DNA of 64,000 bases from a bacterium (lineage in GTDB: Bacteria; Patescibacteriota; Saccharimonadia; Saccharimonadales; Saccharimonadaceae). The stretch spans positions 626 through 64,625 of the forward strand of contig JAYSMZ010000018.1 in the NCBI GenBank assembly GCA_043724245.1. Reading direction: 5' to 3'. The translations under genes and the position numbers were made by a program. Positions 4,020 to 39,285 of this stretch are shown one piece after another; positions within the stretch are counted from its first letter, which is position 1, and each line of letters starts with the position of its first letter. Below the pieces are notes generated by a model that searched no databases, was not told the origin of the DNA, and saw only the letters and a program-made list of their open reading frames with translations.

Positions 4020-4136
4020 AAAATTTGTTTAATAAAATGTATAATCTAAATCGAGAAAAACAACTATTTTTTAAGTTGACATGAAATCTAATACATTCTT
4101 GTATAACCATAGCCCTTGTGGTTAAATGTAGATATC

Positions 4137-8718: not shown

Positions 8719-9056
8719 TGTTTGACTTTCTCGGCAACCAGCAATGTTATTTGTTTTCGAAGATTTTCATCATCAACGCCACGAGACATATTTTGTTGCC
8801 TTGGCCGGATATTTATCATCGAGTCAAATTCAATAAATTCGTCCGTACCAAACTTTGCAGGATATAGGTTGATACCCCATAAATCATCTTGTTTCGAGCC
8901 ACTTTCTAACAATTTTTGCTCGGCATCTACGTGCATTTCTACATCTACAACCATAGCCTTTTTCTCAAGGTCAACAACAGCCTTCACTAGATTGCCGTAC
9001 ATCTTTTGCGCCATTTCGTTCAATTCAACGGCTGTTATCATATCAATCTGTTTCAT
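8715..9056 (-). CDS. Small conserved hypothetical protein, DUF5674-like (cassette gene 1)
   Basis: 113 aa. The pattern ...GNLVKAVVDLEKKAMVVDVEMHVDAEQKLLESGSKQDDLWGINLYP...FDSMINIRP... matches my recollection of the DUF5674 family. The function is unknown. Confidence 0.5.
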   Translation of the reverse strand: MKQIDMITAVELNEMAQKMYGNLVKAVVDLEKKAMVVDVEMHVDAEQKLLESGSKQDDLWGINLYPAKFGTDEFIEFDSMINIRPRQQNMSRGVDDENLRKQITLLVAEKVKQ

Positions 9057-9086
9057 ATAGATAGTATACCAGAGCGGAAAGGTGAG

Positions 9087-9118
9087 TTATACTATAAGCA
9101 GTATGGCGGTATATAAAG
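9087..9118 (+). repeat. Direct repeat copy 2 (contains the -10-like TATACT and start codon of the prgI-like gene)
   Basis: See the 8303-8334 entry. Confidence 0.9.
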
Positions 9119-10077
9119 TCCCCCAAGATGTTGAAGCTGACGATAAATTAATCGGACCGTTTAGTTTTCGCCAGTTTATTTATCTGGTTATTGTCGCTTT
9201 GGCAATTATGATGGCGTGGGGATTGGCGCAGTTATTTGTCCCTCTTTTAGTTCTGCCGTTGCCAATCATCATATTTTTCGGTGCACTTGCCTTGCCACTG
9301 CGCAAAGACCAACCAATGGAAATATACATGGCGGCAATGGTGTCGTTTTTCCTGAAACCACACCGACGTTTATGGGACCCGGATGGTATTGATTCATTAA
9401 TTGAAATTACCGTACCAAAAATTATCGAATACAGCCGAACTAAAGATTTATCTATGTCCGAAGCCGAACGCCGTTTTAGTTATTTGGCTGAAATAGTCGA
9501 CAGCCAAGGGTGGGCTATCCGTGGACCCGGAGTCCAAGCACCAAATAGTGCTATGACAAGCGACGCATATTTTGAAGCTCAGTCTGTCGAGGACATATTG
9601 GATAACAACGCAACAACTTCGCTTTCACTATCTGATAAATTAAAACAAAGTGAAGCCCGCCTGCGCCAAGAGGCGGTCGACATTATGCATAAAAAAGTGT
9701 TCGCGCCCAAACCACAGCCTGTTGCTACAGCCCAGCCAAAGCAACTGGCTCAGCCTCAGCCTGTTCAACCAATGCCAAGTCCTGCCAGTTATTTTGGAGG
9801 CACACCACTTGTCGAACCGGCTATTGCCGCTGAGCCAACAGTCGCTACGCCGATCAACTATAACCCATACCCAGATATCAGACAGTCGGTCATCGAACCA
9901 ATCGGGCAACAAAAACCAGCGGCCAAACCAAAAACAACCACTAGCGCAAAGGTGGTACCAGCTGGTATAATAAACCTCGCTAGTAATACCGATCTAACAA
10001 TCGCGGCTATTGCTCGTGAAGCTGATAGAATTCAGAAAAAACAAGACGCACAAGAGGTAATAGTTAAACTTCGATAG
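9103..10077 (+). CDS. PrgI/VirB3-like T4SS membrane protein with Pro/Gln-rich C-terminal extension
   Basis: The N-terminus MAVYKVPQDVEADDKLIGPFSFRQFIYLVIVALAIMMAW is followed by a second TM helix. This matches the PrgI-family (VirB3-like) signature of Gram-positive T4SS. ATG 9103 is preferred over GTG 9082. Confidence 0.65.
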   Translation: MAVYKVPQDVEADDKLIGPFSFRQFIYLVIVALAIMMAWGLAQLFVPLLVLPLPIIIFFGALALPLRKDQPMEIYMAAMVSFFLKPHRRLWDPDGIDSLIEITVPKIIEYSRTKDLSMSEAERRFSYLAEIVDSQGWAIRGPGVQAPNSAMTSDAYFEAQSVEDILDNNATTSLSLSDKLKQSEARLRQEAVDIMHKKVFAPKPQPVATAQPKQLAQPQPVQPMPSPASYFGGTPLVEPAIAAEPTVATPINYNPYPDIRQSVIEPIGQQKPAAKPKTTTSAKVVPAGIINLASNTDLTIAAIAREADRIQKKQDAQEVIVKLR

Positions 10078-10108
10078 CAAATACTAAGGGGAGTGGGAAC
10101 GAACAAAC

Positions 10109-10939
10109 ATGCCGCCAAACAATCAAACGCCAGTACAACCGCCTGCCGCTCCGCCTGCAGGTAATTCTGCTATCCAGGGCTCTGGTACCAATGCTCCTGC
10201 ACCACAAAAGCCAAAAAACCCTAATTCTACCCAAAACACCCTGTTATTATCAGAGATCCGCGACAATATGGTCATCATGACTGATGGTTCGTTCCGCGCT
10301 GTTGTTGCCTGCAAATCAATAAACTTCGATTTGATGAGCAGTACCGAACGCGAAGGCGTCGAATACAGTTACCAAAATTTCCTGAATGCCCTAAACCATC
10401 CAGTTCAAATACTTATCCGTTCACAACGTATTGATATTGGCCCGTACATTGAACGTCTAGTCGAAATACGTCGCAACCAGGATAATATGCTGCTAAACGT
10501 TTTGATGGATGATTACATCGACTATATCGATATGCTGTCCCAAGAAGCGAATATTATGGACAAATCATTTTTTATCGCAATTCCATACTATGCGCAGGGC
10601 GATGTTAACAACCTGGTTGAACAAGGCAAGGGATTCTTTGGCAAGTTATTTGGCGGAAATAAAAATATTATTACTAAAATTGACACTATCACTTACGAAA
10701 AAGCCAAAACTGAAATAAAAAACAGAGTTGACGGTGTTATGGCCGGGTTGTTCCAATTGGGAATACAAAGCGTCCAATTAAACACCAAAGAACTTGGCGA
10801 ACTGTATTATAACTTTTATAACCCAGACACAGCAGTACGCGAACCACTAGGAGATTTTGACAACGTAACATCGATTTATACCAAAAAAGCAACTGCTGAT
10901 ACACCAGTCGAACAAGCAGGAACAGAGGTAACAGAATGA
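10109..10939 (+). CDS. T4SS protein resembling a detached VirB4 N-terminal domain
   Basis: 276 aa. A disordered Pro-rich N-terminus precedes IRDNMVIMTDGSFRAVVACKSINFDLMSSTEREGVEYSYQNFLNALNHPVQILIRSQRIDIGPYIERL. That pattern is like the CagE/TrbE/VirB4 N-terminal region. The stop overlaps the VirB4 start as ATGA. Confidence 0.5.
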   Translation: MPPNNQTPVQPPAAPPAGNSAIQGSGTNAPAPQKPKNPNSTQNTLLLSEIRDNMVIMTDGSFRAVVACKSINFDLMSSTEREGVEYSYQNFLNALNHPVQILIRSQRIDIGPYIERLVEIRRNQDNMLLNVLMDDYIDYIDMLSQEANIMDKSFFIAIPYYAQGDVNNLVEQGKGFFGKLFGGNKNIITKIDTITYEKAKTEIKNRVDGVMAGLFQLGIQSVQLNTKELGELYYNFYNPDTAVREPLGDFDNVTSIYTKKATADTPVEQAGTEVTE

Positions 10940-12837
10940 TGGCACGAAAAAAATCCGATGTTTCCGAAATCGCTGCCGAGCAACGCGAACGTGAACAAAT
11001 CGAAGTTGAACAAGCATTTTTAAAGGGCGTTACAACACTTCGTGATTTAATCGCCCCCAGTAGTATCGAAATTCATTCATCACATTTTAGACTGGGAACA
11101 AAATATGGACGGACGCTATATATATATGGATACCCGCGACAAATTTATACCGGTTGGCTGAGTTCGCTGATTAATATTGACGAGGTTTTAGATGTCAGTA
11201 TGTTTGTTTATCCGGTTGAAAGTCAGGTTGTTCTGAAAAACTTGCGTAAAAAAGTGACTCAGCTGGAAGCGTCAATGTCAATTAACAGCGAAAAAGGCCG
11301 GATTCGGGACCCAGGTCTGGAAGCCGCTATCGGCGACGCCGAAGAACTTCGCGACCAATTGCAGGTTGGAGCCGAAAGGTTTTTCCGCTTCGGACTTTAC
11401 ATAACACTATATGCCGACAGTATGGATGAACTAGGGTTTGTCCAACATAAAATTGAAACGATTTTTGGCCAGCAAATGGTTTTCAGCAAAGTCGCCAGCA
11501 GTCAGCAAGAACAGGGATTGAACAGCACTATACCGCAAATGTCAGACCAGTTACAAATTCGTCGCAACATGGACACGGGTGCAATCAGCACAAGTTTCCC
11601 ATTCACCAGCGCCGATTTGACCCAAGAAAACGGCATACTTTATGGAATTAATATGCATAACAATGGCCTAGTCATCTTTGACAGGTTTAGTTTAGAAAAT
11701 GCTAATATGGTGGTTTTTGCAAAGTCGGGTGCAGGCAAATCTTTCACGGTTAAACTTGAGGCTTTGCGAAGTTTGATGACTGGTACTGAAGTCATTATCA
11801 TCGATCCGGAAAGTGACTACAAAAAACTTTGTGATGCGGTAGGTGGCAGTTATATTCGCCTAAGCTTGAATTCGAACACCAGGATTAATCCTTTTGATTT
11901 ACCGCGTGTTATTGATACCGACGAAGCCGACAATGCTTTGCGTGCCAATTTAATTACCCTGCATGGACTATTAAAGCTTATGCTGGGCACTACTCAGCCG
12001 ACAACAACCGGCGTCCCAATGCCTTCGGCATTAACTCCTACAGAAGAGGCAGACCTAGATCAAGCATTAATTGATACTTATGCTCGTGTCGGGATTACAG
12101 CCGATCCGTTGACGCATAATTCACAACCGCCAACAATCAGCGACTTGTATGATACGCTTTTGCACATGGGTGGCAGTGGGCCAAGTTTGGCTCAGCGTTT
12201 GCGGAAATACACGTCTGGAACTTTTGCCGGGATATTCAGCCAGCAATCCAATACTGAAATAAATAATATGATGGTGGTATTTAATACTCGTGACCTAGAG
12301 GATGAATTGCGACCGGTTGCAATGTATATTATTCTCAGTCATATCTGGAATTTAATCCGTGCAGAAAAAAAGAAACGGCTTTTAATAATTGATGAGGCCT
12401 GGGAAATGATGAAATATGACGACTCGGCAAACTTTTTATTCAGTCTGGCCAAACGAGCTCGTAAATATTATTTGGGCCTGACGACAATCACACAGGATGT
12501 CGAAGATTTTATGAGCAGTAAAATGGGGCGCGCCATCGTTGCCAACAGTTCGATGTCGATTCTGTTAAAGCAATCGCCAAGTGCAGTTGATGTCATGTCG
12601 AATGTCTTTAAGTTAACAGATGAGGAAAAGAAGCGATTAGCAAATTTCCCAATCGGCCAAGGTTTGTTCTTTGCCGGACAAAGCCACGTCCATATACAAA
12701 TTGACGCCAGCGATGCTGAAAAACAAATAGCCAACACCAATCCTCAAATTGCCGACCAGCCAATAGGTCCACAACCAACTCAACCAAACAGTGGGCCCAG
12801 CGCTAGTAGTTATATTAACCCCGAATCAAGCGTGTAA
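10936..12837 (+). CDS. virB4: VirB4-family T4SS ATPase
   Basis: 633 aa. Walker A is FAKSGAGKSFTVK and Walker B-like is LLIIDEAWEMM. The upstream motif GRTLYIYGYPRQIYTGWLSSL is typical of Gram-positive VirB4/TrsE-type ATPases. Confidence 0.85.
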   Translation: MMARKKSDVSEIAAEQREREQIEVEQAFLKGVTTLRDLIAPSSIEIHSSHFRLGTKYGRTLYIYGYPRQIYTGWLSSLINIDEVLDVSMFVYPVESQVVLKNLRKKVTQLEASMSINSEKGRIRDPGLEAAIGDAEELRDQLQVGAERFFRFGLYITLYADSMDELGFVQHKIETIFGQQMVFSKVASSQQEQGLNSTIPQMSDQLQIRRNMDTGAISTSFPFTSADLTQENGILYGINMHNNGLVIFDRFSLENANMVVFAKSGAGKSFTVKLEALRSLMTGTEVIIIDPESDYKKLCDAVGGSYIRLSLNSNTRINPFDLPRVIDTDEADNALRANLITLHGLLKLMLGTTQPTTTGVPMPSALTPTEEADLDQALIDTYARVGITADPLTHNSQPPTISDLYDTLLHMGGSGPSLAQRLRKYTSGTFAGIFSQQSNTEINNMMVVFNTRDLEDELRPVAMYIILSHIWNLIRAEKKKRLLIIDEAWEMMKYDDSANFLFSLAKRARKYYLGLTTITQDVEDFMSSKMGRAIVANSSMSILLKQSPSAVDVMSNVFKLTDEEKKRLANFPIGQGLFFAGQSHVHIQIDASDAEKQIANTNPQIADQPIGPQPTQPNSGPSASSYINPESSV

Positions 12838-12856
12838 AGGATAATGCAAGGGAATT

Positions 12857-15800
12857 ATGGCTGAACCCGCACGAAAATTTGATCCTGATATTGAACATGA
12901 TATTACACCCCCTTTTCTAAAGGGTCTCGAGGGCGGTGGCGATACCAATTCAAGACGAGGAAACCTAGAGGCTGTTAAGAATTCAGAATCCAAACCAGGA
13001 AAACTAGGTACTGGTTCTGTCGCGGAACGCGAGGCAAAAGGCTCAAATGTTATCAAGGGACCGTGGAAAAGTAGTGTTACCGGCAATAAACCTGGCTCAT
13101 CTAAATTCGGCGGTCTTTATGCTGCAATTAAAAAAAAGAGTCCAGTCGCAGTAATTATCGCACTTATATTTGGTGGAGGAGCAACAATTTTCATGGGGAG
13201 CGGCATTCTTGCGCCAATTTCCTTTATTACAAATGTCGCTGACGACCTTAACGACCAACTTGCCTCTCTTGACATTCGCAATGAACACATGGGGAGAAAC
13301 AAGATACCAAGCGTAGAAAGAGACAAGGCAATAGCAGGTTGTAGAACACTATCTATTAGATGTAAGTTCCGTACTATGTCAAAAACTCAGGTAAAAAAAT
13401 TTGAAAAAGCCGGAATAAAAGTAATTGGCGAAAAAGGTGGAATATTTGGCAATAGAATAAAACCGACTGAATATGTGTTTGAAAATAAGTCATATGGACC
13501 AAAAGAGTTTGCTAAAGAGATTAATATAAAAAGCGGAAACAGTAGGATACGTTATGCATTAAGGCGTGGAATTAATATGAAGTATATCGGTTTTAGCGAT
13601 AAATCATTTATTAACATACTAGATAAATTTGGTATATCAAGAAAACCTCCAGAACTCAGAGGTACCAAAGAAGATCGGGTAAAAGCCCTTATGGATAGAA
13701 CTGGTGCGAATAGTATTGATGATCTTAAGTTTAAGCCTGTGGACAAAGAAGGTAATGCTGTCCCCGATGGGGAAGAGCCACATCATTATTTACTAGAGGG
13801 AGACACAGGCCCAAATCCAAGACAATATAGCAAAAAACAGGTGGGTACCATGAAAAAGGCTATCTCTGGGGTGCAGTCTGCTGTGAGGCCAACAAAACTA
13901 ACAGGCGCTGCCTTAAAGGGTTTGTCGGTTTTAGGGGCAGTAGACCTAGCTTGTTCAATAAAAAATACGATTGGGATGGCAGCTATTGCCCAAAAAGTTG
14001 CAAATTCAGTCCAACTTGCAAAATACGCAATGCCTGTTATGAGTCTTGCTGGTCAAATGAAAGCTGGCGATATATCAACAGCTGATTCCGAAGTACTAGG
14101 CGAGTTTTTTATGAATCCAGACAATCGAAAAACGATTTCAGAAATAGCGGGCTCATCAGCGAGCGATGCGTCGGTAAAGGACGTCGCCAACCCGAATTAT
14201 GGCAAGAACGCTATGGATTCAGATTTGTATAGTATGTCGACAACAGGAGAGGTTGCATCAAACCCAGTAAACACTACGTATTCTTTGGGTATGGGGGTAA
14301 GCCGATTATTATCGGGTGTAGCCTTTTCTGCAGCAATAATGGACACAATTCTTAACGTTGGCTCGGATAATGATATGACCTGTAGATTTGCGCAAAATTG
14401 GTTTGTGCGCGGAGCCGGAGTGGTAGTTGCAGCTGTCGGGGTAGTTACTAGTGGCGGTACCTCTTTAGTACCACAGGCTGCATTGTTTGGTGGTATGATG
14501 GCAGCATTTTTAGCAGTTAACTATGCTCTAAAATCTGCGTTAAGTGGGTCATTATTTGAAGGAGGTATGCAGGATTCGCCAGTTGAAAGAGGAGCAGCTA
14601 CTTGGACGGGTATGGCCGTAATAGAGGGAGAAACGGCAAAAAACCGAGGTATGATGCCTGGAAACAGCAAACAGATTGTCGCCTACAACCAATTACAGAA
14701 CAGCTCGAAACTAGATTATATTGCAATGGAGTCCCAGGACGTCAACCCTCTTGATGTTTCGAGTCAATATTCATTCCTTGGGTCATTCGTAAGATCAATT
14801 AGTGGCCACTTTAGTTCTTCGGCAAACTCATCTTCGTTAAGCGGTATATTGTCGTTAATTTCTAGTAGTATGTCGTCAGCCGTAAATCCTCAAGCAACGT
14901 ATGCAAAAAATATTGATTCTTCAAGGTTCACAAAATGTGACGATGATATATATAAAGACGCTGGTATTGACGCTGACGTACAATGTAATATTCGATACGT
15001 AATGCCGACTGAAGATTTGGCGCTTGACACTGACGAAGTGGCACGTTATATGGAAGATAACGGTTATGTAGAAAAAGACACTACAACAGGACTACCGGCA
15101 GGATACACCGAACCAGTCCCAAGTGAAACTCAAAACTTTGCAATGAATTTATTAAATGGAGCAGTTGATAGTTTTTACAATGACAGAAACTACGGAGACA
15201 CAACCGCGGGCAAAGAGTATGGTCAGTTCCTTGACTACTGCGCCTACCGTTCAATGCCATTTGGTCAAACATATGAAGAATCAGGAGCGTTTAACGCAGC
15301 AGATCCGAGTTGGGTTGACGGAAGTAACTGCATGAAACAAGGAGCTCCTTATAGTTATTTCCGCATATATACATTTGATAAAACCGTAAACGCGGCTATT
15401 GATGATGAATATGCCGAAGATGTCACTTCGCAGGATTCTACCGACCCTGTGGGTTCAAGTCCGAACGTTGGAAATATCGATATAGATTATACGGATAACG
15501 GAGCAAATATACCGTGTGCCGCCGGTACAACAAATACAAATCCTGCAATCCAACAAGGGTATTACGAAGACCCTAGTGGCCGCATTTCGTTAAGCTATGG
15601 TAGGTCTCGTTACCGTGTCACCACCGTAAAAGTCCGAACCTGCAATGTTGGTTCAGGCAAACCGGTAAACTCACAAATATCCGCATCGGCTAAACAGATG
15701 CTAAAAGACAATGACAGACTGAGTATATACTCTGGGTTCAGAGACATGGCGTTGCAAACACAACTATGGTTCGATAACGGCCAGGACCAAAGGTACGTGG

Positions 15801-15976
15801 CCAGGCCTGGTACTTCTAATCATCAAATGGGCATAGCGATGGATTTGGCATGCGACGGCATAAAGATAGGTGGTCATTCAAACCAATGTTTTGTGTGGTT
15901 AAAGAATAATGCTTCCAAATATGGCTTCAAGAATTATGATCCCGAACCGTGGCACTGGTCGGTGAATGGTAGTTGA
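12857..15976 (+). CDS. Large T4SS-associated membrane protein with C-terminal VanY/M15-type peptidoglycan peptidase domain
   Basis: 1039 aa. TM helix near aa 95-125 and further hydrophobic segments mid-protein. The C-terminus SGFRDMALQTQLW...ARPGTSNHQMGIAMDL...YDPEPWHW carries the SxHxxGxAxD and ExWH motifs of the zinc D-Ala-D-Ala carboxypeptidase (M15B/VanY) family. Confidence 0.75.
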   Translation: MAEPARKFDPDIEHDITPPFLKGLEGGGDTNSRRGNLEAVKNSESKPGKLGTGSVAEREAKGSNVIKGPWKSSVTGNKPGSSKFGGLYAAIKKKSPVAVIIALIFGGGATIFMGSGILAPISFITNVADDLNDQLASLDIRNEHMGRNKIPSVERDKAIAGCRTLSIRCKFRTMSKTQVKKFEKAGIKVIGEKGGIFGNRIKPTEYVFENKSYGPKEFAKEINIKSGNSRIRYALRRGINMKYIGFSDKSFINILDKFGISRKPPELRGTKEDRVKALMDRTGANSIDDLKFKPVDKEGNAVPDGEEPHHYLLEGDTGPNPRQYSKKQVGTMKKAISGVQSAVRPTKLTGAALKGLSVLGAVDLACSIKNTIGMAAIAQKVANSVQLAKYAMPVMSLAGQMKAGDISTADSEVLGEFFMNPDNRKTISEIAGSSASDASVKDVANPNYGKNAMDSDLYSMSTTGEVASNPVNTTYSLGMGVSRLLSGVAFSAAIMDTILNVGSDNDMTCRFAQNWFVRGAGVVVAAVGVVTSGGTSLVPQAALFGGMMAAFLAVNYALKSALSGSLFEGGMQDSPVERGAATWTGMAVIEGETAKNRGMMPGNSKQIVAYNQLQNSSKLDYIAMESQDVNPLDVSSQYSFLGSFVRSISGHFSSSANSSSLSGILSLISSSMSSAVNPQATYAKNIDSSRFTKCDDDIYKDAGIDADVQCNIRYVMPTEDLALDTDEVARYMEDNGYVEKDTTTGLPAGYTEPVPSETQNFAMNLLNGAVDSFYNDRNYGDTTAGKEYGQFLDYCAYRSMPFGQTYEESGAFNAADPSWVDGSNCMKQGAPYSYFRIYTFDKTVNAAIDDEYAEDVTSQDSTDPVGSSPNVGNIDIDYTDNGANIPCAAGTTNTNPAIQQGYYEDPSGRISLSYGRSRYRVTTVKVRTCNVGSGKPVNSQISASAKQMLKDNDRLSIYSGFRDMALQTQLWFDNGQDQRYVARPGTSNHQMGIAMDLACDGIKIGGHSNQCFVWLKNNASKYGFKNYDPEPWHWSVNGS

Positions 15977-15977
15977 T

Positions 15978-16478
15978 ATGAATAAGAAGATTATTATCAT
16001 CATATCTGCGATAATCATCATTGTTTCAGTCTGTGCTGTTTTTTATATTTTTCAACAAAATTCAAAAAAATCTGTTGAATCAGACTCGGGGAATGTCAGT
16101 ATCAAAATTGCTAAGGGCGCCGAAAAAGATACGAAAATCATACAACCTGCCGTTGAGGCCTATTTGTCCCAAAATGTCTCTGAAACTATTGCGTCAAGAA
16201 GCAAACGATTATCTGCTTACTTTACGTCTGACAGCCCGGTTCTAAGCCGTGACATTGAAATTCGTTCAATAAACTCAGCAGTCAAAACAAAAGGGAGTTT
16301 GACATCGGTATCGTTTATTGCGGGTGAAAGTCAATTACCAACCCTAATTGTTAAAGCAGATGTAACAAGTTATGCTGGGTCAAATAGTAATACTGTTTCA
16401 CAAACTTATTGGGTATCCATGAAGAATAATTCCATGAAAGTTCTTAAGGCCTATGATATAGGGTTGATGGATCAATAA
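15978..16478 (+). CDS. Small N-terminally membrane-anchored protein (VirB8-like scaffold or immunity candidate)
   Basis: A single TM (IIIIISAIIIIVSVCAVFYIF) plus a ~130-aa beta-rich ectodomain. ATG 15978 sits directly after the upstream stop. Confidence 0.45.
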   Translation: MNKKIIIIISAIIIIVSVCAVFYIFQQNSKKSVESDSGNVSIKIAKGAEKDTKIIQPAVEAYLSQNVSETIASRSKRLSAYFTSDSPVLSRDIEIRSINSAVKTKGSLTSVSFIAGESQLPTLIVKADVTSYAGSNSNTVSQTYWVSMKNNSMKVLKAYDIGLMDQ

Positions 16479-16479
16479 T

Positions 16480-19400
16480 ATGAAGATGTTAACTAAGAAT
16501 AATTTCAAAAAAACAAACATATACCTTTGTTTATTGATAATGGTTTTATCTACATTATTATTGCCTTTAAAAGTTTTGGCGGTTGATTTAGATTTTTTTT
16601 CCGCTAATGATATTTTGTTTTATATGCCTTGCGAAGTGCCAACCAGTTCTGACAACAGCAGCGCCGGCGCTGCTTCTAACGGGACAATTGTTTTAATAGG
16701 TGATTCTATCTCAGTTGGCTTACAAAATGTTGGGATAGCAAAAAAACTCAAAGATAACGGATATACAGACGTTACTATTGACGCCGCCGGTAGCCGCAGC
16801 ATGTTAAGCCCCGGAGACAGCACAACTAATGGTCTTCAGGCAGTAGATGCCAACAAAGACAAAATATCCTCTGCCGGAACAATCGTGGTAGGGCTTGGCA
16901 CAAATACTGAGCCTGAATTCGAATCAAATTTAAAGAAAATGGTCAAGAAAATTCGGAATATAAATAATAATATACGAATATTTTGGACAAATGTTGGCGT
17001 TACAAATACTGGCGCAAAAGCCAGTATGGATGAATACAATAAAATTATCGATAGAAACAAGTCCGCCTTAGACTATACAGTTATCGATTGGCACAAAGAG
17101 GTTATAGATAATCCTAGTTTAATACCTATCCCTGACGGAATTCACCCTGGCGCTAATGGTTATAATAAACTTGCGGCACTCGTTACAAAAAGCGTAGGAA
17201 AAGCTGGGGCAATTAGTAGTAGCGGAGGCGCGCCCATGGATGGCACTGGAAACATACCATACGATCTTCCTGCTACATCAGGCAAAACAGGTTTAGAATC
17301 TGCGATTGATGAAAACGGTAAGTTTATTCACTCTAGCGAAAAAGTTACTTTTTCAAGCCTTGCAAAAAAGGGCCAGGCTTATCGTGACTATTACATAACG
17401 ATGCGTTGGAATTATGTATCGTGGAATTGGGATGGGACGACAGCTGATGCCGATAATGAACAATATGCCTGGATGGCACGGACCCCTAGGATGGTTCTAG
17501 TAACAAACGAAAGGACTGGAAAAAGTATTTACGCCGCAGCCCTAGAAGCTGGGCCGGCTCCATGGGCTGGCGCGGCTAGTGGAACAAGCGGCGCTTCTCG
17601 TAATGGTTGGCATAACCCACAAAGAGGTACGCCATCTGAATACACCGGTCGCGTTTCCGGATTCCCACCAAAAGCATTTAGTGCGTTAGGCGCTAGACAG
17701 GGTATGAGTAGTGGCAGTGGTGATGTTTTGAAATATCAATGGGCCCCCAACCAAAACGCCACTCCTGGTCCCACTACTGACAAAGTTGGCTCTTCGAACA
17801 CTCAAGCCGTAAGTAGTAATCCTAACTGTGGATGTGCTTCTTCGTCTTCGCCTAGCGCCAGCACCAACGGTAAGTTTGATAAATATTTGAAGGCATTAGC
17901 ATATACGGAAAGTGGTGGAAGCTACACGGTTGTAAATAGTTCTGGTTTTGAGGGAAGATACCAAATTGGACCAAATTACTTCAATAGTTACGCTGATAAT
18001 TATCCTCCTGGAAAACAACTAGGTCCGCATGCCGCCACTATGCCGGGTGATGTGCAGGACGCAATGGTTTATCTTCATTTATACGAACAATACCTAAAAG
18101 TAGACAAAGACACATTGCGACTGGCGGCGGGTTGGATTTGGCCAGCGGCGGCGGATTCACCCAACGATCCGGCTATGGATATTGTTTTGCCGGGTAATAA
18201 CGGTGGCCTTACGCCGCGAAAATATGCACAAATTGTCCTTGGTAACATGAAAAAATCTGCTGCTCAAAAACTTGAATTAAAATACCTTGATGCTCCAGAG
18301 TTCGAAAAATATTACAAAAAACTGGATGGCAACAAAAACACACCATATGGGGCCTTTCCTGGTGGAGGATCAAGTGCAAGTACGGCAGGTTCCAGCACTG
18401 GTAATGGTAATGCTAATAATGCAGTCTCAGGTGCAAGCACGGGTACTAAGCCAAAAATTCTCATTAGTCCTGGGCATACTGGTCAAACTGATACTAAAAT
18501 GATGGGGAACCCAGCAATAATAGATCATATATCCCCCAACCCTACCGAAATGCAAAACGTGTGGGACGTCGCAGTTATCGTCAAACGAAAACTAGAAGCA
18601 AAGGGATACGAAGTGTTAATGACAAAAAATAGCGCCAACGGAGGAATATTCTCGTGGGACCGAGCTCAAATGGCGAACGATAACAATGTTGACCTGGCCT
18701 TCGAAATTCATACCGATACTGGAGCTACTTATAATCATGATTGGAAGGTTGGTGAAGTTTGGTCACAATGGAAGGACGGCTATAGGGAAGCTGGGCGCAA
18801 CGGGAATGGACAAAAAGTTAAGCTTGTTGCATCAGATGCTGTTATGGCTAAAAGTCAAGAATATGCAAAAAAAGTTGCCACCGCTAGACAAGAGGCCGGT
18901 CAAACTGGCGTAAAAGGTGTTGTTGGAACCGGTAAATTCGGTACCAGGCCAGCAAAGCCTTTTGATTCGAGCTATCCAACTCCCGCTGGAAATATCCCAC
19001 TAGTAATGCTGTGGTCAAAAGTACCGTGGATATACAACGAGGTAGGTGGGGCGTCAGGTGGACTTACTGATCAGCAAATACAAGTATATGCCGAAGGATT
19101 GGTAAATGGTGTTGTTGAATCAGTCCCACCAGGGAGTGGTGGTTCTACCTCTAGCGAATGTGGAAATACTTCTGGTGATGGTGATGCCACTGCCATCGTA
19201 GAGACTGCTATAAAATACTCCTGGGATAGTTTGGGTGCGGTTCATGGTTGTACGCCGCAAGACGCCTATAAGGAGCCCTGGAAGAAGTTATATTCTGGAT
19301 ATTCCGGAGCTTGTGGTAACCCAGACTATAGCCCGTGCAACCAGTTTGTTGGTACAGTTATGCGTTCTAGTGCAGCTGACAATAAATTTGAACCAAACGT

Positions 19401-19647
19401 AGTATCTTCTCAGGCAAGATATATGGAATCACATCCTGAAAAATATACCAAAATTCCAAACCCTCAATCAACCAGGGATTTAGAGCCGGGTGATATACTG
19501 GTTAAAAAGGACGAGAGTCATATTATGATTTATGTTGGCGACAAGCCTGGTGGTGATATAAGGAATGGCTCGTTGGGCAAATACGCACCGGCAGCTGCCA
19601 GCACGGGATGGTATATGGGTGATATAAAGGCTTACAGGTTAAAATGA
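16480..19647 (+). CDS. Four-module secreted cell-wall hydrolase (SGNH esterase + lysozyme-like transglycosylase + Amidase_3-like + NlpC/P60-like)
   Basis: 1055 aa with a signal/TM. SGNH blocks are LIGDSISVG, VGLGTNT and DGIHP. SLT-like motif: ALAYTESGGSYTVVNSSGFEGRYQIG. Amidase_3-like motifs: ILISPGHTGQTD ... NNVDLAFEIHTD. C-terminal Cys/His papain-like module: SPCNQFVGTVM ... GDILVKKDESHIMIYVG. Confidence 0.8.
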   Translation: MKMLTKNNFKKTNIYLCLLIMVLSTLLLPLKVLAVDLDFFSANDILFYMPCEVPTSSDNSSAGAASNGTIVLIGDSISVGLQNVGIAKKLKDNGYTDVTIDAAGSRSMLSPGDSTTNGLQAVDANKDKISSAGTIVVGLGTNTEPEFESNLKKMVKKIRNINNNIRIFWTNVGVTNTGAKASMDEYNKIIDRNKSALDYTVIDWHKEVIDNPSLIPIPDGIHPGANGYNKLAALVTKSVGKAGAISSSGGAPMDGTGNIPYDLPATSGKTGLESAIDENGKFIHSSEKVTFSSLAKKGQAYRDYYITMRWNYVSWNWDGTTADADNEQYAWMARTPRMVLVTNERTGKSIYAAALEAGPAPWAGAASGTSGASRNGWHNPQRGTPSEYTGRVSGFPPKAFSALGARQGMSSGSGDVLKYQWAPNQNATPGPTTDKVGSSNTQAVSSNPNCGCASSSSPSASTNGKFDKYLKALAYTESGGSYTVVNSSGFEGRYQIGPNYFNSYADNYPPGKQLGPHAATMPGDVQDAMVYLHLYEQYLKVDKDTLRLAAGWIWPAAADSPNDPAMDIVLPGNNGGLTPRKYAQIVLGNMKKSAAQKLELKYLDAPEFEKYYKKLDGNKNTPYGAFPGGGSSASTAGSSTGNGNANNAVSGASTGTKPKILISPGHTGQTDTKMMGNPAIIDHISPNPTEMQNVWDVAVIVKRKLEAKGYEVLMTKNSANGGIFSWDRAQMANDNNVDLAFEIHTDTGATYNHDWKVGEVWSQWKDGYREAGRNGNGQKVKLVASDAVMAKSQEYAKKVATARQEAGQTGVKGVVGTGKFGTRPAKPFDSSYPTPAGNIPLVMLWSKVPWIYNEVGGASGGLTDQQIQVYAEGLVNGVVESVPPGSGGSTSSECGNTSGDGDATAIVETAIKYSWDSLGAVHGCTPQDAYKEPWKKLYSGYSGACGNPDYSPCNQFVGTVMRSSAADNKFEPNVVSSQARYMESHPEKYTKIPNPQSTRDLEPGDILVKKDESHIMIYVGDKPGGDIRNGSLGKYAPAAASTGWYMGDIKAYRLK

Positions 19648-20012
19648 TTATTAATAAAAAGATTTATATCATAGCAATCGCAGCTGTTGCTGTTATATCC
19701 TTGTTCGCAATATTTATATTCTCACAAAAACCAGTTGATACAAATGTTGACAACGGAGAATCTAGCCTAAAATTTAACCAGGACAGCCAATCTGCCATCG
19801 CTGCCTATCCCATTATTGCTAACTTACCAAAGGATATGTCGCCCGTATTTAGAATTGATTACGGTGTTTCCCTTAAATATCCAAAATATTCGAAAAAAAT
19901 CGCACTGTATATCAGCTCTGACAGACCAGACAATAAATTGTCTGCAATAGAATACATTTATAAAATGGGGTATGACCCTTCTGAATACGAAATAATATTT
20001 AAGGGATTATAA
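19644..20012 (+). CDS. Small membrane-anchored protein, unknown function
   Basis: 122 aa with an N-terminal TM. ATGA overlap with the hydrolase gene. Confidence 0.45.
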   Translation: MIINKKIYIIAIAAVAVISLFAIFIFSQKPVDTNVDNGESSLKFNQDSQSAIAAYPIIANLPKDMSPVFRIDYGVSLKYPKYSKKIALYISSDRPDNKLSAIEYIYKMGYDPSEYEIIFKGL

Positions 20013-20016
20013 AACC

Positions 20017-20736
20017 ATGCAACCTATAATTGATTACTTCACAAAGATACCGAGGAAAAAATTAGTTGTTAGATTATTAGTCACATTTTTTGTTTTGGTT
20101 GCAATTATTTTTTCTGTTTCACTTGTCTGGAATAATTACAATAGTCAAAAAATTGTAACACTCAACCCATCGCCTGGTACAACTATTGCAATAGGCGAAC
20201 AATCCGGTGACGAACCCACAATAACAAAACAAATTGCTAGCACAAATACACTTAAAAAAGTAACTTTACCGGTTGGTAATTATGCTGTGAAATTTACGGG
20301 TTCGTCGGATTATCAAGACAAATATATCTCAATTTTTATTGATAAACCAACCGAGATAAAAACTCCTAACTTAATGTACACAAATGAAAAGCTAAACAAA
20401 TTATTAATTTCTGAAAAGCCAGCTATCCAAAGCGTCATCAAGCCAGTTTTACCGAACCAGGGTTACCAAATTGATCATGAAGCGCCGATGGAGAACGGTA
20501 ATTGGTATGGGGCAAGATTAATCCCTGGCGGGTGGTATGCGTCACCACTTTCATCAAATATTTTGCCTGGTTTAATTAACGAGGATAACACCGAAGATAT
20601 GTTGCTGGTTATTTTGAAAAAAGAGAATGGTGGATGGAAACTGATGGCAGGACCATCGATAATATTTTGGATTGACAACTACCCCAATATCCCTCAAGAT
20701 ATCATACGAGCAACAAATAAACTCGGTTTTTATTAA
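20017..20736 (+). CDS. Membrane-anchored protein, unknown function (last gene of T4SS operon)
   Basis: 239 aa with an N-terminal TM (LVVRLLVTFFVLVAIIFSVSLVW) and a soluble ectodomain. Confidence 0.45.
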   Translation: MQPIIDYFTKIPRKKLVVRLLVTFFVLVAIIFSVSLVWNNYNSQKIVTLNPSPGTTIAIGEQSGDEPTITKQIASTNTLKKVTLPVGNYAVKFTGSSDYQDKYISIFIDKPTEIKTPNLMYTNEKLNKLLISEKPAIQSVIKPVLPNQGYQIDHEAPMENGNWYGARLIPGGWYASPLSSNILPGLINEDNTEDMLLVILKKENGGWKLMAGPSIIFWIDNYPNIPQDIIRATNKLGFY

Positions 20737-21795
20737 TTATTTCAACATTATTAAATTAGTATTTTTCTTGAATCCCTTAATAACCACGTCGGCGTCGGTT
20801 GTTGTAATTATTGTTTGGTAATTTTTTAAATACTTCGTTATTGCTTGGCGACGCGATGCGTCTAGTTCACTGAAAACATCATCCAGCAAGATTATCGGTT
20901 TCGTGTTGGTTATTTGTTCGATGATTTCAACTTCCATGAATTTGATTGCTAGGACAATAGTTCGGACTTCACCACGTGAGGCAACGTCCAAAGCCGAGTA
21001 GTTATTAAACTTGAATATGACATCATGCCTGTGTGGACCCGTGCCGGTAAAGCCCAGAGATTTGTCTCGCTCAATATGGCTATGTAAGTCATTTAACAAT
21101 TTTTGTTTAATATCGCCGATATACGTATTGGAATAATGAACAGACGCAATATTGTGCGACATTGCGATTAAATTGTACTGATCGTTTAACTTACTGTTTA
21201 TTCGTTCAATAAATGCGATTCTTTTTTCAATAATATATGCGCCGTATTCACTAATCGCGATGTCCCACACAAATAATTCGTTTTGACCGACACCACGTTT
21301 TTTTAATAAATTATTTCTTTGTTTTAGCGCCCGATCGTATTTATGAATGGCGCTTTGATACATTGGGTCAAGTTGGCTGATAAAACGATCAATAAATTGG
21401 CGCCGTCTGGTGGGTGAGCCGTGTAGCAATCGCAAATCGTCCGGTTCAAATAATACGACTGGGTGTTTGAGTTTTGCAGGCAGCCGATACATTGTTTTAT
21501 CACCAACGACAATCTTTTTCCGACCAGTGGTTAGTTCCGGATTATAAGTTATTGTCCTTTTGATAAAATTATCAAACTCAATATCTATACGCCACCAGGG
21601 CGAATTGTAACGAAGAATATCATTGTCGGTTCCTTTGAATGACGTGCCCCGCAAACCAATATAGATCGCCTCGATTATCGAAGTTTTTCCGCTACCATTA
21701 TTACCGACAATTACCGTAACGGTCGGCGATAGGTTGATTTTAAATTTATCATGCGAACGAATGTTCTGAACAGATAATTTTTTTACCACCGTCAT
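20737..21795 (-). CDS. recF: DNA replication and repair protein RecF
   Basis: Walker A VGNNGSGKTSIIEAI, an SMC-like C-terminal LLDDVFSELD, and synteny dnaA-dnaN-recF. Confidence 0.9.
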   Translation of the reverse strand: MTVVKKLSVQNIRSHDKFKINLSPTVTVIVGNNGSGKTSIIEAIYIGLRGTSFKGTDNDILRYNSPWWRIDIEFDNFIKRTITYNPELTTGRKKIVVGDKTMYRLPAKLKHPVVLFEPDDLRLLHGSPTRRRQFIDRFISQLDPMYQSAIHKYDRALKQRNNLLKKRGVGQNELFVWDIAISEYGAYIIEKRIAFIERINSKLNDQYNLIAMSHNIASVHYSNTYIGDIKQKLLNDLHSHIERDKSLGFTGTGPHRHDVIFKFNNYSALDVASRGEVRTIVLAIKFMEVEIIEQITNTKPIILLDDVFSELDASRRQAITKYLKNYQTIITTTDADVVIKGFKKNTNLIMLK

Positions 21796-21807
21796 AACAG
21801 GTTATAA

Positions 21808-22908
21808 CTAGCTCTTTAGTGGCATAATAATATGATAGTAGTTGGTATCGGGTTTGGTTGAACGTAGTACACATGGTGCGATTTTACCGCTGAATTTAAA
21901 TTCGACTTCGTCACCGTCGATTACCGACAGCGCTTCACTTAGATACCGAGAATTCAACGTAATGTGACCGTCGTTGCTAACGTTTGCGTTGGTTTCTGAA
22001 TTATTTTCACCAAACTGTGAGGCGATGGAATGAACCGAAAGGGCTTTTTTCTCTTTGTCGGCTGTTATTGTAACACTGCCGCCGGATTCCCTGGCAAATA
22101 AACCAGCGATTTTGTTAATACGAATAAAATCATTTTTGTTTAAAGTCACGGTTGTTTCGGATGATTTTGGTACCAATTGGCGATAATTTGGGAAGTTTCC
22201 GTCAATTAAGCGGCTGATAATTTCAGCGTCGTTAATCCTAAATCTGACTTGGGTATTATCAAACAAAATGTCAATTTCACTTGTGTCATCGGTAATGTTT
22301 CGCATTACTTCGGACAGGGTTTGGGTTGGAATAATTGCTGATACATCACTTTTTGTTTCAACTAATCGTCTTTCTGATAGGCGATAACCATCGGTCGCAG
22401 CCAAATATAATTGTCCCTCAAAAGAATTCCAGTAAACCCCTGTTAAAATCGGTCTAGTAGAGTCATTGCTAGTGTTAATAATTGTTTGTGTTACCGCATG
22501 TTTAAAATCTTCGGTTTTAATACTGTATTGAATAGATGATGATTCATTGATTGTTGGTAGTTCTGGAAATTCATCGGCAATAAAACCATTAATTGTTGAT
22601 GTGTATGTACCACTCTTAATGTGCAAGTTGTCGTTTACTACTTTAAGTTCGATTGATTCTTTAGGTAAACTGCTGATGAACTCGGTCATTAGTTTTGCAG
22701 GAATTGTAATTGCTCCTTGTTTTGCAACTTTTGCTCCAATATATTGGGTTGATGCAATTTCAAGGTTGGTTGCGGCTACTAAAAGACGGTTTGCATCAGT
22801 TCGAAGTAAAATATTACTTAGGATTGGCAACTGTGTTTTTGTACTGGCAACACGCCCAACAGCCGAAAGAGCTCGGTTAAGATTTTCCTGGGTTACGGTT
22901 AGTTCCAT
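21808..22908 (-). CDS. dnaN: DNA polymerase III beta sliding clamp
   Basis: 366 aa. The N-terminus ...LNRALSAVGRVASTKTQLPILSNILL... is typical of DnaN, and the gene lies downstream of dnaA. Confidence 0.9.
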   Translation of the reverse strand: MELTVTQENLNRALSAVGRVASTKTQLPILSNILLRTDANRLLVAATNLEIASTQYIGAKVAKQGAITIPAKLMTEFISSLPKESIELKVVNDNLHIKSGTYTSTINGFIADEFPELPTINESSSIQYSIKTEDFKHAVTQTIINTSNDSTRPILTGVYWNSFEGQLYLAATDGYRLSERRLVETKSDVSAIIPTQTLSEVMRNITDDTSEIDILFDNTQVRFRINDAEIISRLIDGNFPNYRQLVPKSSETTVTLNKNDFIRINKIAGLFARESGGSVTITADKEKKALSVHSIASQFGENNSETNANVSNDGHITLNSRYLSEALSVIDGDEVEFKFSGKIAPCVLRSTKPDTNYYHIIMPLKS

Positions 22909-23184
22909 TATTATTACCTTTCTTTAATTTCATTTTTTAGGTTTGTTAATAGGTCTTGTGGAAACCTAGTAAAACTTTTATTCAACAGGTAAATACCACG
23001 TAAATCGGGTGTGTTTTCAGTTGTGGAAAGTTGTGGTAAAGAATGTTTATTAAAATACGCTTTTACTATTTGAATAACATATTTATATTGTTTATGTAAA
23101 CTAATAGGGGATAAATTGCCGTGTGTTGTACGGTCAAGTTTGCGCAGGTTGTTCACAATTTTTACCCATTGGCTGAATACAATA
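22909..23184. promoter_or_regulatory. dnaA-dnaN spacer with DnaA-box-like 9-mers and AT-rich tract (candidate oriC segment)
   Basis: TGTGGAAAC 22957-22965, TGTGGAAAG 23022-23030, TGTGGTAAA 23032-23040 and TTGTTCACA 23149-23157. Each is one mismatch from TTWTNCACA or its complement. There is an AT-rich stretch at about 23041-23100. Confidence 0.45.
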
Positions 23185-24555
23185 TTAGGCATATAACTTC
23201 TCCCTTATTGACGCTACTTGTTCGCGAATTAGAAAATCTAGTTTGATGGCTTTTTCAATTTTTTCAATCGAGTGAATAGCTGTGGTGTGATCTTTTCTCC
23301 CTAATTCACGCGCAATTTTTGGAAAACTTAGGTGTAATTCACTCCGCAACAGATACATTGCAATTTGCCTAGGAACAACAATATATTTATCCCTTTTTTC
23401 ACCACAAATCTCATCAAGTTCAAGTTGGAAGTGTTTAGCGGTTTTATCAATAATCTGCTTAGTTGACAAGTGTTGTGGTCTTGAATGACGAATATTGCCC
23501 AACAGTCCTTCAGCGGTCGAAATATCCGGTTCAATCCCGCGCATCTCGGCATAAGCCAAGAGTTGGTTCAAAGCCCCCTCTAGCTCGCGAATATTGGTTT
23601 TTATGTTTGTAGCCAGATATTCAGTTGTTTCGTGGTTAAGTGTAATACCAGACTGGGCGGCTTTGATATTCAAAATTGCACAGCGGGTTTCAAAATCGGG
23701 CATTTGAATATCGATCGCCATACCCATTTCAAAGCGGCTTCGCAAACGTTCGGTTAAGGTTGGGATGCTTTTAGGTGGTTTGTCGCTACTGATGATAATC
23801 TGTTTATTGTTTTGGTGTAGGTGGTTAAAGGTGTGAAAGAATTCTTCTTGGGTTTTTTCTTTGCCAGCAATAAATTGCATATCATCGACAATTAATACGT
23901 CAACATTGCGATATTTTTCAGAAAACCCCTTTTTCTTGAACCGGATATGGTCTAAAAACTCACTAACGAAGGTTTCTGAACTGATATACAAAACACGGAT
24001 TTTTGGGTCTTTTTTAATAATTTCGTTACCAATTGCCTGGGCCAGGTGAGTTTTACCAAGGCCGACTCCGCCGTATAAATAAAGCGGGTTATATTTAACA
24101 CCTGGATTAGCTGCCACCGCCTGGCTGGCTGTATATGCTAGGTCATTACTTGAACCGACGATAAAATTATCAAATGAATATCGTGGATTCAGGTTGCCGG
24201 CAGAAGTTTGGCCGATTTTGGATTTATTATTGACAGACAGCAGCCCCTCAATATCAGTTGTGAACGCTGTGGCTGTGGTTGTTTCGCGGCTGGAACGTGT
24301 GTTCCTTCCTGTTGTATTGATAGTATAGGTGATTTGTTTTGGATTAATGCCATTTTTTGACAAAACACCACGGACTTGATCGTTGAATTTAACTTCAAAC
24401 TGTTTTTTTGCAAATATATTTGGAACAGATATGACTATACCGGCTTCATTTTGGTCTAATAGCTCAGTGTTTTTAAACCATGTCGTGAAAGTTGCGTGCG
24501 AAACCGAAAGCTCGATCTCTCCAAGCACACTCTGCCACAACGCCGCATTTTGCAT
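23185..24555 (-). CDS. dnaA: Chromosomal replication initiator DnaA
   Basis: 456 aa. AAA+ Walker A LYGGVGLGKTHLAQA, a box VII region, and a C-terminal DNA-binding motif GRKDHTTAIHSIEKI. Confidence 0.95.
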   Translation of the reverse strand: MQNAALWQSVLGEIELSVSHATFTTWFKNTELLDQNEAGIVISVPNIFAKKQFEVKFNDQVRGVLSKNGINPKQITYTINTTGRNTRSSRETTTATAFTTDIEGLLSVNNKSKIGQTSAGNLNPRYSFDNFIVGSSNDLAYTASQAVAANPGVKYNPLYLYGGVGLGKTHLAQAIGNEIIKKDPKIRVLYISSETFVSEFLDHIRFKKKGFSEKYRNVDVLIVDDMQFIAGKEKTQEEFFHTFNHLHQNNKQIIISSDKPPKSIPTLTERLRSRFEMGMAIDIQMPDFETRCAILNIKAAQSGITLNHETTEYLATNIKTNIRELEGALNQLLAYAEMRGIEPDISTAEGLLGNIRHSRPQHLSTKQIIDKTAKHFQLELDEICGEKRDKYIVVPRQIAMYLLRSELHLSFPKIARELGRKDHTTAIHSIEKIEKAIKLDFLIREQVASIREKLYA

Positions 24556-38076: not shown

Positions 38077-38077
38077 G

Positions 38078-39280: not shown

Positions 39281-39285
39281 TTATT

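Follow-up and report, generated by a model that had tools for sequence, protein, structure and literature searches.

Six predicted cell wall-cutting modules in a hypervariable gene island beside the type IV secretion ATPase gene of a member of the Saccharimonadaceae: candidate host-fitted components of the secretion machine

Why should two large proteins encoded beside the ATPase gene of a type IV secretion system (T4SS) carry six predicted cell wall-cutting modules between them, and on whose wall would these modules act? The question is raised by a 64,000-nt stretch of DNA from a member of the Saccharimonadaceae (GCA_043724245.1, contig JAYSMZ010000018.1, positions 626-64,625), hereafter called the window, to which all positions given below refer, and by two of its genes, here named P1 and P2. 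Saccharibacteria are ultrasmall and live on other bacteria. The T4SS cluster SEML1_0006-0019 of Southlakia epibionticum ML1 was described by Wang et al. (2023, Cell, PMC10633639) as essential for on-host growth, though the role of the Saccharibacterial T4SS has been called completely unknown in a 2024 perspective. It seems reasonably likely to us that P1 and P2 are wall-cutting components of the T4SS, belonging to a cassette which is fitted to the host and whose target is, at least in part, the wall of the host.

P1 and P2 lie beside virB4 in the T4SS operon and possess peptidoglycan hydrolase domains, which places them among the T4SS-associated wall hydrolases. The two open reading frames (ORFs) named in a first-pass annotation of this DNA agree with the ORF list in coordinates, strand and length, and the T4SS setting described there is likewise borne out, as genes coding for PrgI, a TrsD-like protein and a CD1110-type VirB4 are located immediately 5′ of P1. 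The main elements are the following:

12854-20747, + strand: hypervariable island of five genes (P1, s170, P2, s122, s239) between virB4 and recF, delimited by blastn and protein identity
12857-15976, + strand: P1, 1039 amino acids (aa), with an N-terminal part of about 860 aa belonging to an unmatched family and an exchangeable C-terminal wall peptidase (ORF, homologue comparison)
15686-15961, + strand: VanY/M15B zinc peptidase domain of P1, aa 944-1035 (Pfam PF02557)
16480-19647, + strand: P2, 1055 aa, a putative secreted six-module wall hydrolase (ORF, Pfam, homologues)

The blastn comparison with the corresponding locus of the nearest species (L004) revealed similarity from 9086 to 12853, then a gap, with the similarity resuming at 20748, so the block from P1 to s239, five genes in all, has been replaced as a whole. 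The proteins encoded on both sides of this block share high identity with their counterparts in L004 (PrgI 82%, TrsD-like protein 87%, VirB4 93%, RecF 91%, DnaN 93% and DnaA 93%), whereas identity is 26% for P1 and, across 23% of its length, 12% for P2, and s170, s122 and s239 matched nothing in L004. Being wholly different in the nearest species, this block of about 8 kb may be the portion of the machine that is fitted to the host wall.

The N-terminal part of P1 contains about five hydrophobic segments (around residues 94-128, 348-368, 477-502 and 515-558) and conserved cysteines, and is common to 46 homologues whose C-terminus is represented by VanY, M15_4, M23, CHAP or nothing. Its approximately 860 aa gave no match in Pfam, NCBIfam or a PDB profile search, and an NCBIfam search of 31 P1 homologues matched only their C-terminal peptidases. 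The C-terminal VanY/M15 zinc peptidase claimed in the first-pass annotation is confirmed by Pfam PF02557 (E = 5.8e-15, 55.7 bits against a cut-off of 25) and by the motifs SNHQMGIAMD (residues 987-996) and EPWHW (1030-1034), in which S987, H989 and D996 of the SxHxxGxAxD pattern and E1030 and H1033 of the ExxH pattern, the catalytic and zinc-binding residues, are conserved in 17 homologues. When this segment was compared with the PDB, VanY and LdcB carboxypeptidases were found (E = 5e-8 to 7e-7), aligned through SxHxxGxAxD; the VanY structures (5hnm, 5zhf) and LdcB (4ox5) score alike against the P1 domain, and NCBIfam scores fall far under the equivalog cut-offs, so that the domain could be a DD- or LD-carboxypeptidase or an endopeptidase. 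Judging by hydropathy, P1 is probably a membrane protein displaying its VanY/M15B zinc peptidase outside the cell. The possibility of P1 being a VirB6/ConG equivalent was also considered and was dropped as unproven, the 1383-aa protein with many membrane segments encoded upstream being a better fit for VirB6.

P2 is composed of a leader followed by five predicted modules, located as follows:

16480-16635, + strand: Sec-type signal peptide, aa 1-34 ending VLA, then the conserved motif DLDFFSANDILFYMPC (sequence, hydropathy)
16681-17199, + strand: SGNH/GDSL esterase module, aa ~68-240 (Pfam Lipase_GDSL_2, PF13472)
17242-17784, + strand: RlpA-like double-psi beta-barrel core, aa ~255-435, as modelled (homologues, AlphaFold2, Foldseek)
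17866-18279, + strand: lysozyme-like SLT/Rpf-type module, aa ~463-600 (homologue-based)
18451-19119, + strand: Amidase_3 (N-acetylmuramoyl-L-alanine amidase) module, aa ~658-880 (Pfam PF01520)
19177-19644, + strand: C-terminal NlpC/P60-like cysteine peptidase module, aa ~900-1055 (homologues, profile, model)

The single hydrophobic segment of P2 (residues 9-41) suggests that the protein is probably exported by Sec and that its signal peptide is cleaved. An F[YF]SxNDILFY-like motif (16582-16635), followed by a cysteine, stands directly after the leader and is found in 30 of 57 proteins encoded at the same place in related loci; it is kept irrespective of the catalytic domains, including in the proteins from L004-L027, and could be a docking segment.

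The leader bears on the suggestion of the first-pass annotation that these enzymes might be delivered by the T4SS. Translocation of P1 and P2 through the channel as toxins that kill or lyse the host would agree with published speculation on effector delivery by the Saccharibacterial T4SS, and effectors with the NlpC/P60 fold or amidase activity, for example Tse1, which is among the fold matches given below, are delivered by other contact-dependent systems. Such delivery is nevertheless not supported, given the Sec-type signal peptide of P2 and the several membrane-spanning segments of P1; besides, the window ORFs that were scanned included no recognisable relaxase or coupling protein, the absence of both having been reported for ML1 too, and peptidoglycan hydrolases work outside the membrane, so no channel into the cytoplasm would be needed. 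A toxin role of this kind is considered very improbable.

All the motifs quoted in the first-pass annotation are present in P1 and P2. The SGNH esterase is detected marginally over the Pfam threshold (Lipase_GDSL_2, E = 7e-8, 33.6 bits against 32.9) and has the blocks GDS (74-76), GTN (140-142) and DGIH (219-222), with G74-D75-S76, G140-T141-N142 and H222 conserved in 17 homologues; the only further matches, both weak, were to the acetylxylan esterase AxeA1 and the putative hydrolase 4h08. The module may act on O-acetyl or other ester decorations of peptidoglycan. The amidase scores well above its threshold (Amidase_3, E = 1e-9, 39.1 bits against 27, profile positions 1-117 of 174 covered) and contains SPGHTG (663-668) and FEIHTD (741-746). 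H666, E690, H744 and E854 are conserved in nine homologues, and by comparison with known motifs the first three are presumably zinc ligands and the last the catalytic residue. In the PDB the module has a weak match to the amidase 7agl.

The two remaining modules that had been named before are below the Pfam thresholds in P2 itself. The lysozyme-like module (TESGG, 476-480; GRYQIG, 492-497) reaches 17.7-19.9 bits against 27 for PF06737 (E = 0.0012-0.0056) and 14.1 bits against 21.3 for SLT (PF01464), while its homologue P0005, which is 31% identical, passes both SLT (26.9 against 21.3) and PF06737 (27.8 against 27). E477 within YTESGG corresponds to the catalytic-Glu motif at the domain start, and E477, S478, G479, G480, Y494 and Q495 are invariant in a three-sequence alignment; a PDB profile search with this module returned nothing useful. 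It is through P0005 and the invariant motif that the module can be assigned.

The C-terminal module, predicted earlier to be a Cys/His peptidase of the NlpC-P60 type, has no Pfam match (the PF00877 threshold is not reached), and a homologue search with this module alone found nothing, so its homologues were taken from the fetched loci and from earlier whole-protein matches. At the equivalent region these show repeated sub-threshold NlpC/P60 scores (14-20 bits against 23), and among the PDB matches listed for the family profile 14 out of 18 were NlpC/P60 proteins, all weak (E at least 0.003). C953 is replaced in one of 19 aligned homologues, H1014 and a PGD motif are invariant, the spacing between C953 and H1014 is 61 residues, and the third catalytic residue is not conserved among the homologues. 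The AlphaFold2 model (pLDDT 90.4) was matched best by Foldseek to P60/NlpC domains (probability 0.89-0.99, E 0.035-0.1, TM-scores 0.44-0.57), other top matches being a diffocin baseplate protein, MagC and the amidase effector Tse1. On the basis of homologues, profile and model the C-terminus is taken to be a putative NlpC/P60-like papain-fold peptidase, formal family membership aside.

Thus three domains (VanY, SGNH and Amidase_3) pass Pfam with their catalytic residues conserved, and the SLT-like and NlpC-like modules are reached through homologues, profiles and the structure model, the latter having a near-invariant C953 and an invariant H1014. All five modules predicted in the first-pass annotation are thus supported, and a sixth, the well-conserved RlpA-like double-psi beta-barrel at about residues 255-435 of P2, had been overlooked.

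This barrel core is the only region common to 29 out of 30 non-identical P2 homologues, where it is 45-67% identical and has flanks that differ from protein to protein; the alignment of 30 sequences contains 25 invariant columns, and the conserved acidic residues are E273 and E356. No Pfam match was obtained at E up to 0.1, including DPBB_1, and a PDB sequence-profile search gave no match beyond a chance one to P-selectin. The AlphaFold2 model (pLDDT 88, pTM 0.85) was matched by Foldseek to PA4485 (4avr, probability 0.99), the N domain of p97/Cdc48 and a fungal loosenin in the PDB, and, in a viral library, to RlpA-like phage proteins (probability 0.96-1.0) and to an uncharacterised protein of Rhodococcus phage Weasels2 (E = 2.4e-4); the TM-scores of the fold matches are modest (0.3-0.6). 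As modelled, the core is a double-psi beta-barrel of the RlpA-like type. It shares its fold with RlpA-type barrels (PA4485, expansin/loosenin, the MltA 3D domain) and differs from them in its size, roughly double that of a minimal barrel, as well as in the missing DPBB_1 match and the TM-scores already given.

A profile search of 1.84 billion representative proteins found 242 clusters with the barrel core at E up to 0.001, 107 of which reach 1e-30. In 80 representatives the accompanying domains are nearly all wall enzymes: M23, C39_2, phage tail lysozyme, NlpC/P60, Amidase_2, CHAP, a beta-lactamase fold, Amidase_3, glucosaminidase, GDSL and VanY. By these sequence relationships the core defines a small family fused to predicted peptidoglycan hydrolase domains, and it may cleave glycan or serve for glycan binding alone. 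RlpA cleaves peptide-stripped glycan strands, an activity which would suit the neighbouring amidase. All three of the barrel-core proteins that were looked up occupy the second (P2) slot in other Saccharibacteria. The core was absent from all 80 related species loci fetched, by which its occurrence throughout the closest lineage is ruled out.

How the cassette varies can be seen from the 80 most similar VirB4 loci in species-representative genomes, nearly all of them metagenome-assembled genomes of Saccharibacteria/Saccharimonadales; 56 of these had enough flanking sequence for gene order to be established, and 57 proteins of each slot, P1 and P2, entered the domain census. In all 56 flank-complete loci virB4 is followed by a gene for a large protein (460-1568 aa, most of them at least 750 aa), sometimes a small gene, a gene for a second protein (312-978 aa) and genes for small membrane proteins, and in nearly all of them, as in ML1, recF-dnaN-dnaA come next. 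The second slot, in most Saccharibacteria, holds a protein with a lysozyme and a cysteine peptidase: Phage_lysozyme2 was found in 46 of 57 proteins, Peptidase_C39_2 in 13, CHAP in seven, Amidase_3 in three and GDSL in three, the commonest make-up being a phage tail lysozyme with a C39_2, CHAP or NlpC-like cysteine peptidase. The C-termini of the 57 first-slot proteins include VanY (17), M23 (17), M15_4 (four) and CHAP (three). One homologue, P0147, consists of SGNH, the barrel core, Phage_lysozyme2, Beta-lactamase2 and an NlpC-like module, which is the five-slot plan of P2 with two slots exchanged. The median identity per query length, among loci with a match, is 81% for VirB4 (80 loci), 68% for TrsD and 55% for PrgI (74-80 loci each), 20% for P1 (66 loci) and 5% for P2 (16 loci). 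Since the block is exchanged between close relatives and the ATPase core is conserved, the cassette is probably fitted to the host wall and probably acts on it at least in part.

GH43, GH3, GDPD and EEP domains are found in some homologous slots. PF03372, the endonuclease/exonuclease/phosphatase fold, is fused to wall hydrolases in three of 57 P2-slot proteins (L053:15806-18739, L083:11611-13686 and L031:15190-17880, the last also with a GDPD phosphodiesterase) and in the C-terminal parts of four of 57 P1-slot proteins; the PF03372 and GDPD domains could act on teichoic acids or nucleic acids. In L044:15747-17942 and L076:15913-18231, GH43 (arabinanase/arabinofuranosidase-type) and GH3 (NagZ-like) modules stand ahead of the phage tail lysozyme, which hints at targets such as arabinogalactan or at GlcNAc release. 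Two Saccharibacterial loci are also unusual in their architecture. Toxin-antitoxin pairs (RelE/MqsA-type, YafQ, PhdYeFM/PIN) are inserted in and beside the T4SS locus of L084, from a related Saccharibacterium (919-1594, 6484-6741, 14932-15574), including between virB4 and the P1-slot gene, and L086 has a second, divergently placed T4SS set (pilin, TrbL_3, PrgI, TraC-like, VirB4) beyond dnaA at 17501-21845, with the virB4 of the first copy apparently broken into small ORFs.

As the first-pass annotation had pointed out, the targets of the predicted set comprise ester decorations and the stem peptide as well as the glycan strands and the amide link between MurNAc and L-Ala. Such a combination of bond specificities would reduce peptidoglycan to small fragments. 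The harvesting of muropeptides was suggested as a second possibility in the same annotation. If the host wall were digested mainly for muropeptides, amino sugars and amino acids, this would be in line with the reported inability of TM7x to make UDP-GlcNAc, with the thickening of the host wall during symbiosis and with the NagZ-like GH3 module present in one homologous slot. The suggestion is, however, weakened because the window encodes GlmS (a GlmS-type glutamine-fructose-6-phosphate aminotransferase with a GATase and two SIS stretches, 59343-61178), so amino-sugar synthesis is not obviously missing; the close linkage of these genes to that of the T4SS ATPase throughout the class points to a function within the machine; and no muropeptide transporter or recycling genes were identified beside the locus, where no systematic search for them was made. 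Harvesting as the main purpose is thus thought improbable.

Hydrolases of this class are already known, since the syntenic SEML1_0006 and SEML1_0007 were both scored essential by transposon sequencing of S. epibionticum on its host (PMC10633639). SEML1_0006 (643 aa) has glucosaminidase, phage tail lysozyme and a C-terminal cysteine-proteinase fold (ECOD e7bk8A1), and SEML1_0007 has a Hedgehog/DD-peptidase fold at 951-1105 (PMC10633639). Quinonero-Coronel et al. (2025) also mentioned homologues of peptidases and lysozymes that are essential and encoded immediately 3′ of virB4, in a locus near dnaA. The ML1 locus resembles the window in the order dnaA, dnaN, recF, two small genes, the hydrolase gene, the gene for the large protein with a DD-peptidase fold, virB4, the TrsD-like gene and prgI, and the fold assigned to SEML1_0006, 7bk8, is also a top fold match of the NlpC-like model of P2. 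In contrast, the published table entry for SEML1_0006 includes no SGNH, RlpA-like barrel, SLT/Rpf-like or Amidase_3 domain, and the window's P2, with its six modules, lacks a phage tail lysozyme.

The first-pass annotation overstates its case in assuming one lytic enzyme to be the normal requirement of a T4SS. SEML1_0006 and SEML1_0007 together carry four wall-hydrolase domains, and the hydrolases of Gram-positive T4SSs are multi-domain proteins (PrgK: LytM, SLT and CHAP; TraG: SLT and CHAP; CwlT: muramidase and NlpC/P60), so the window represents the far end of a known pattern and not a break from it. PrgK of pCF10 and TraG of pIP501 are, like P1 and P2, T4SS-operon proteins. They join a metallopeptidase, an SLT domain and a cysteine peptidase, start with a signal or membrane segment and are required for transfer; they differ in having two or three modules as against six and in lacking SGNH, Amidase_3 and RlpA-like modules. 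We know of no report of cassette-wise exchange of PrgK or TraG between close relatives. CwlT of ICEBs1 and Orf14 of Tn916 are likewise encoded downstream of a VirB4-type ATPase in a Gram-positive-type T4SS and join a muramidase to an NlpC/P60 DL-endopeptidase, an arrangement resembling the commonest Saccharibacterial P2-slot protein (Phage_lysozyme2 with an NlpC/C39-like module). P2 of the window differs from them in having four further modules and another glycan-cleaving domain, and its locus lies near the origin on the chromosome with no relaxase or coupling protein recognised nearby. Modular phage endolysins and tail lysins possess the same modules (Amidase_2/3, CHAP, NlpC/P60, M23, glucosaminidase, phage tail lysozyme) shuffled around a constant part, and in phage endolysins this shuffling tracks the host wall type. 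P2, unlike them, is encoded in the chromosomal secretion operon of an epibiont, has up to six modules per chain and contains the constant barrel module in place of a typical wall-binding domain. No account of this architecture of six modules, of the barrel family, of substitution slot by slot or of where the island ends was found in the literature searched; what appears to be new here is the extreme six-module version, the slot-by-slot substitution of domains and the sharply bounded island.

These likenesses give substance to another explanation, according to which P1 and P2 open only the epibiont's own peptidoglycan for assembly of the T4SS and pilus, as VirB1, PrgK, TraG and CwlT do, with the variability reflecting relaxed constraint or phage-driven variation of the surface and not adaptation to the host. 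The operon position is that of cwlT/orf14-type hydrolases of Gram-positive T4SSs, the commonest P2-slot architecture of lysozyme and cysteine peptidase is CwlT-like, multi-domain T4SS hydrolases are known already, and a Sec-type leader together with membrane anchoring would hold the enzymes near their producer. Yet at 91-93% identity of DnaA, DnaN, RecF and VirB4 the wall chemistry of two species is expected to be similar and the whole block is nonetheless replaced; remodelling of the epibiont's own peptidoglycan can hardly account for the GH43, GH3, GDPD and EEP modules found in homologous slots; and six modules exceed any T4SS hydrolase known to us. Action confined to the epibiont's own wall is therefore regarded as rather unlikely.

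The reading preferred here, in which P1 and P2 act at least partly on the host wall, would work as follows. The T4SS is of the Gram-positive conjugation type, chromosomal and adjacent to the origin, and P1 and P2 would be its wall-cutting parts. P1 would be anchored in the membrane with its VanY/M15B peptidase facing outward, and P2 would be exported via Sec with its conserved N-terminal motif followed by the SGNH, RlpA-like barrel, SLT/Rpf-like, Amidase_3 and NlpC/P60-like modules. Acting jointly, they could take off ester decorations, cleave the glycan, detach stem peptides and cut within or trim these, so that thick peptidoglycan would be opened locally to let the T4SS and its pilus through. 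At the contact site an epibiont has to cross two Gram-positive walls, its own and that of the host. For this reason, because the block is exchanged between nearly identical genomic backgrounds, and because some enzymes in homologous slots are directed at wall polymers which the epibiont itself probably does not produce, host-wall action is favoured. Attack on the host wall is plausible and gains indirect support from the replacement of the whole five-gene block between species with flanking genes 91-93% identical, from the changing peptidase types in homologous slots and from the GH43, GH3, GDPD and EEP domains, which are ill suited to remodelling of the epibiont's own peptidoglycan.

Several points weigh against this reading. 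The VirB6-like and pilin genes upstream are likewise divergent from the nearest species, and parts of T4SSs that are exposed at the surface often evolve fast from other causes, among them pressure from phages or immunity. Within P2 the SLT-like and NlpC-like modules stay under the Pfam thresholds, and the structural matches are weak (E 0.009-0.1). Moreover, the essentiality reported for ML1 (PMC10633639) fits action on the own wall and on the host wall alike; it cannot separate the two because all growth of ML1 is host-dependent.

The remaining genes of the locus and its flanks are:

4116-8267, + strand: 1383-aa membrane protein, putative extended VirB6/TrbL-like subunit (hydropathy, position)
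9082-10077, + strand: PrgI/VirB3-like protein (Pfam, NCBIfam)
10109-10939, + strand: TrsD-like protein (Pfam, NCBIfam)
10936-12837, + strand: VirB4 ATPase, CD1110-type (NCBIfam CD1110 conjugal transfer ATPase family, E = 1e-109)
15966-16478, + strand: s170, small protein with an N-terminal membrane segment (hydrophobic 1-34; ORF, hydropathy)
19644-20012, + strand: s122, small protein with an N-terminal membrane segment (ORF, hydropathy), with a counterpart in few related loci
20017-20736, + strand: s239, small protein with an N-terminal membrane segment, the last gene of the island (ORF, hydropathy)
20737-24555, - strand: recF, dnaN and dnaA, the conserved downstream flank (Pfam)

As recF-dnaN-dnaA adjoin, the P1/P2 locus is chromosomal and close to the replication origin. 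Homologues of s170 were found in four of the 80 related loci (30-35% identity), and s239 corresponds in position to SEML1_0004 of ML1. The VirB4 function is apparently split between the 276-aa TrsD-like protein, which matches the N-terminal part of mycoplasma-type VirB4, and the 633-aa ATPase, their genes overlapping by 4 bases. In the 1383-aa protein a presumably exported N-terminal domain is combined with some eight hydrophobic segments (aa ~365-640) and with an Ala/Thr/Glu/Arg-rich tail of about 740 aa; a Pfam scan of it gave no match, and the protein is strongly divergent from the nearest species. Given its hydrophobic segments and the TrbL/VirB6-annotated SEML1_0013, a large protein encoded on the corresponding side of prgI in ML1, it is probably an extended VirB6/TrbL-like subunit. 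Its coding region explains a local rise of G+C to 0.505 and of AT skew to 0.33. T4SS pilin-like genes (Pfam) lie further upstream of prgI, and a gene for a DUF5674 protein (8715-9056, - strand, E = 1e-29) is located between the VirB6-like gene and prgI.

Elsewhere in the window, a stretch of low G+C content (about 38000-53200, 0.34-0.36) codes for a Wzt-type ABC transporter ATPase, three GT4 glycosyltransferases and a DegT-type aminotransferase and is probably a surface polysaccharide cluster. An Rfam scan of the window found no RNA families. The named members of the 90%-identity clusters to which DnaA and VirB4 belong are Candidatus Saccharibacteria, and three metagenome contigs carrying P1 are all 100% identical to the window.

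As to what the locus may mean for Saccharibacteria, it is possible, if doubtful, that the five-gene island is a host-range determinant, a slot-organised cassette swapped by recombination to match the envelope chemistry of Actinobacterial hosts, in which the barrel core would be a new lytic transglycosylase or a glycan clamp at the T4SS contact site. The slots proposed for this cassette are an esterase or polymer hydrolase, the RlpA-like barrel, a glycan cleaver, an amidase or DD-peptidase and a cysteine endopeptidase, in addition to the P1 metallopeptidase. Even if the enzymes act on the epibiont's own wall only, the locus would still be a clear case of extreme modular expansion of a VirB1-type hydrolase. 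S. epibionticum ML1 is the one genetically tractable system. If the proposal is true, the wall-cutting cassette would be the component that varies to match the host, in a machine conserved in other respects, a small and previously undescribed barrel family would join the repertoire of peptidoglycan enzymes, and the island would be a source of modular lytic enzymes against Actinobacteria.

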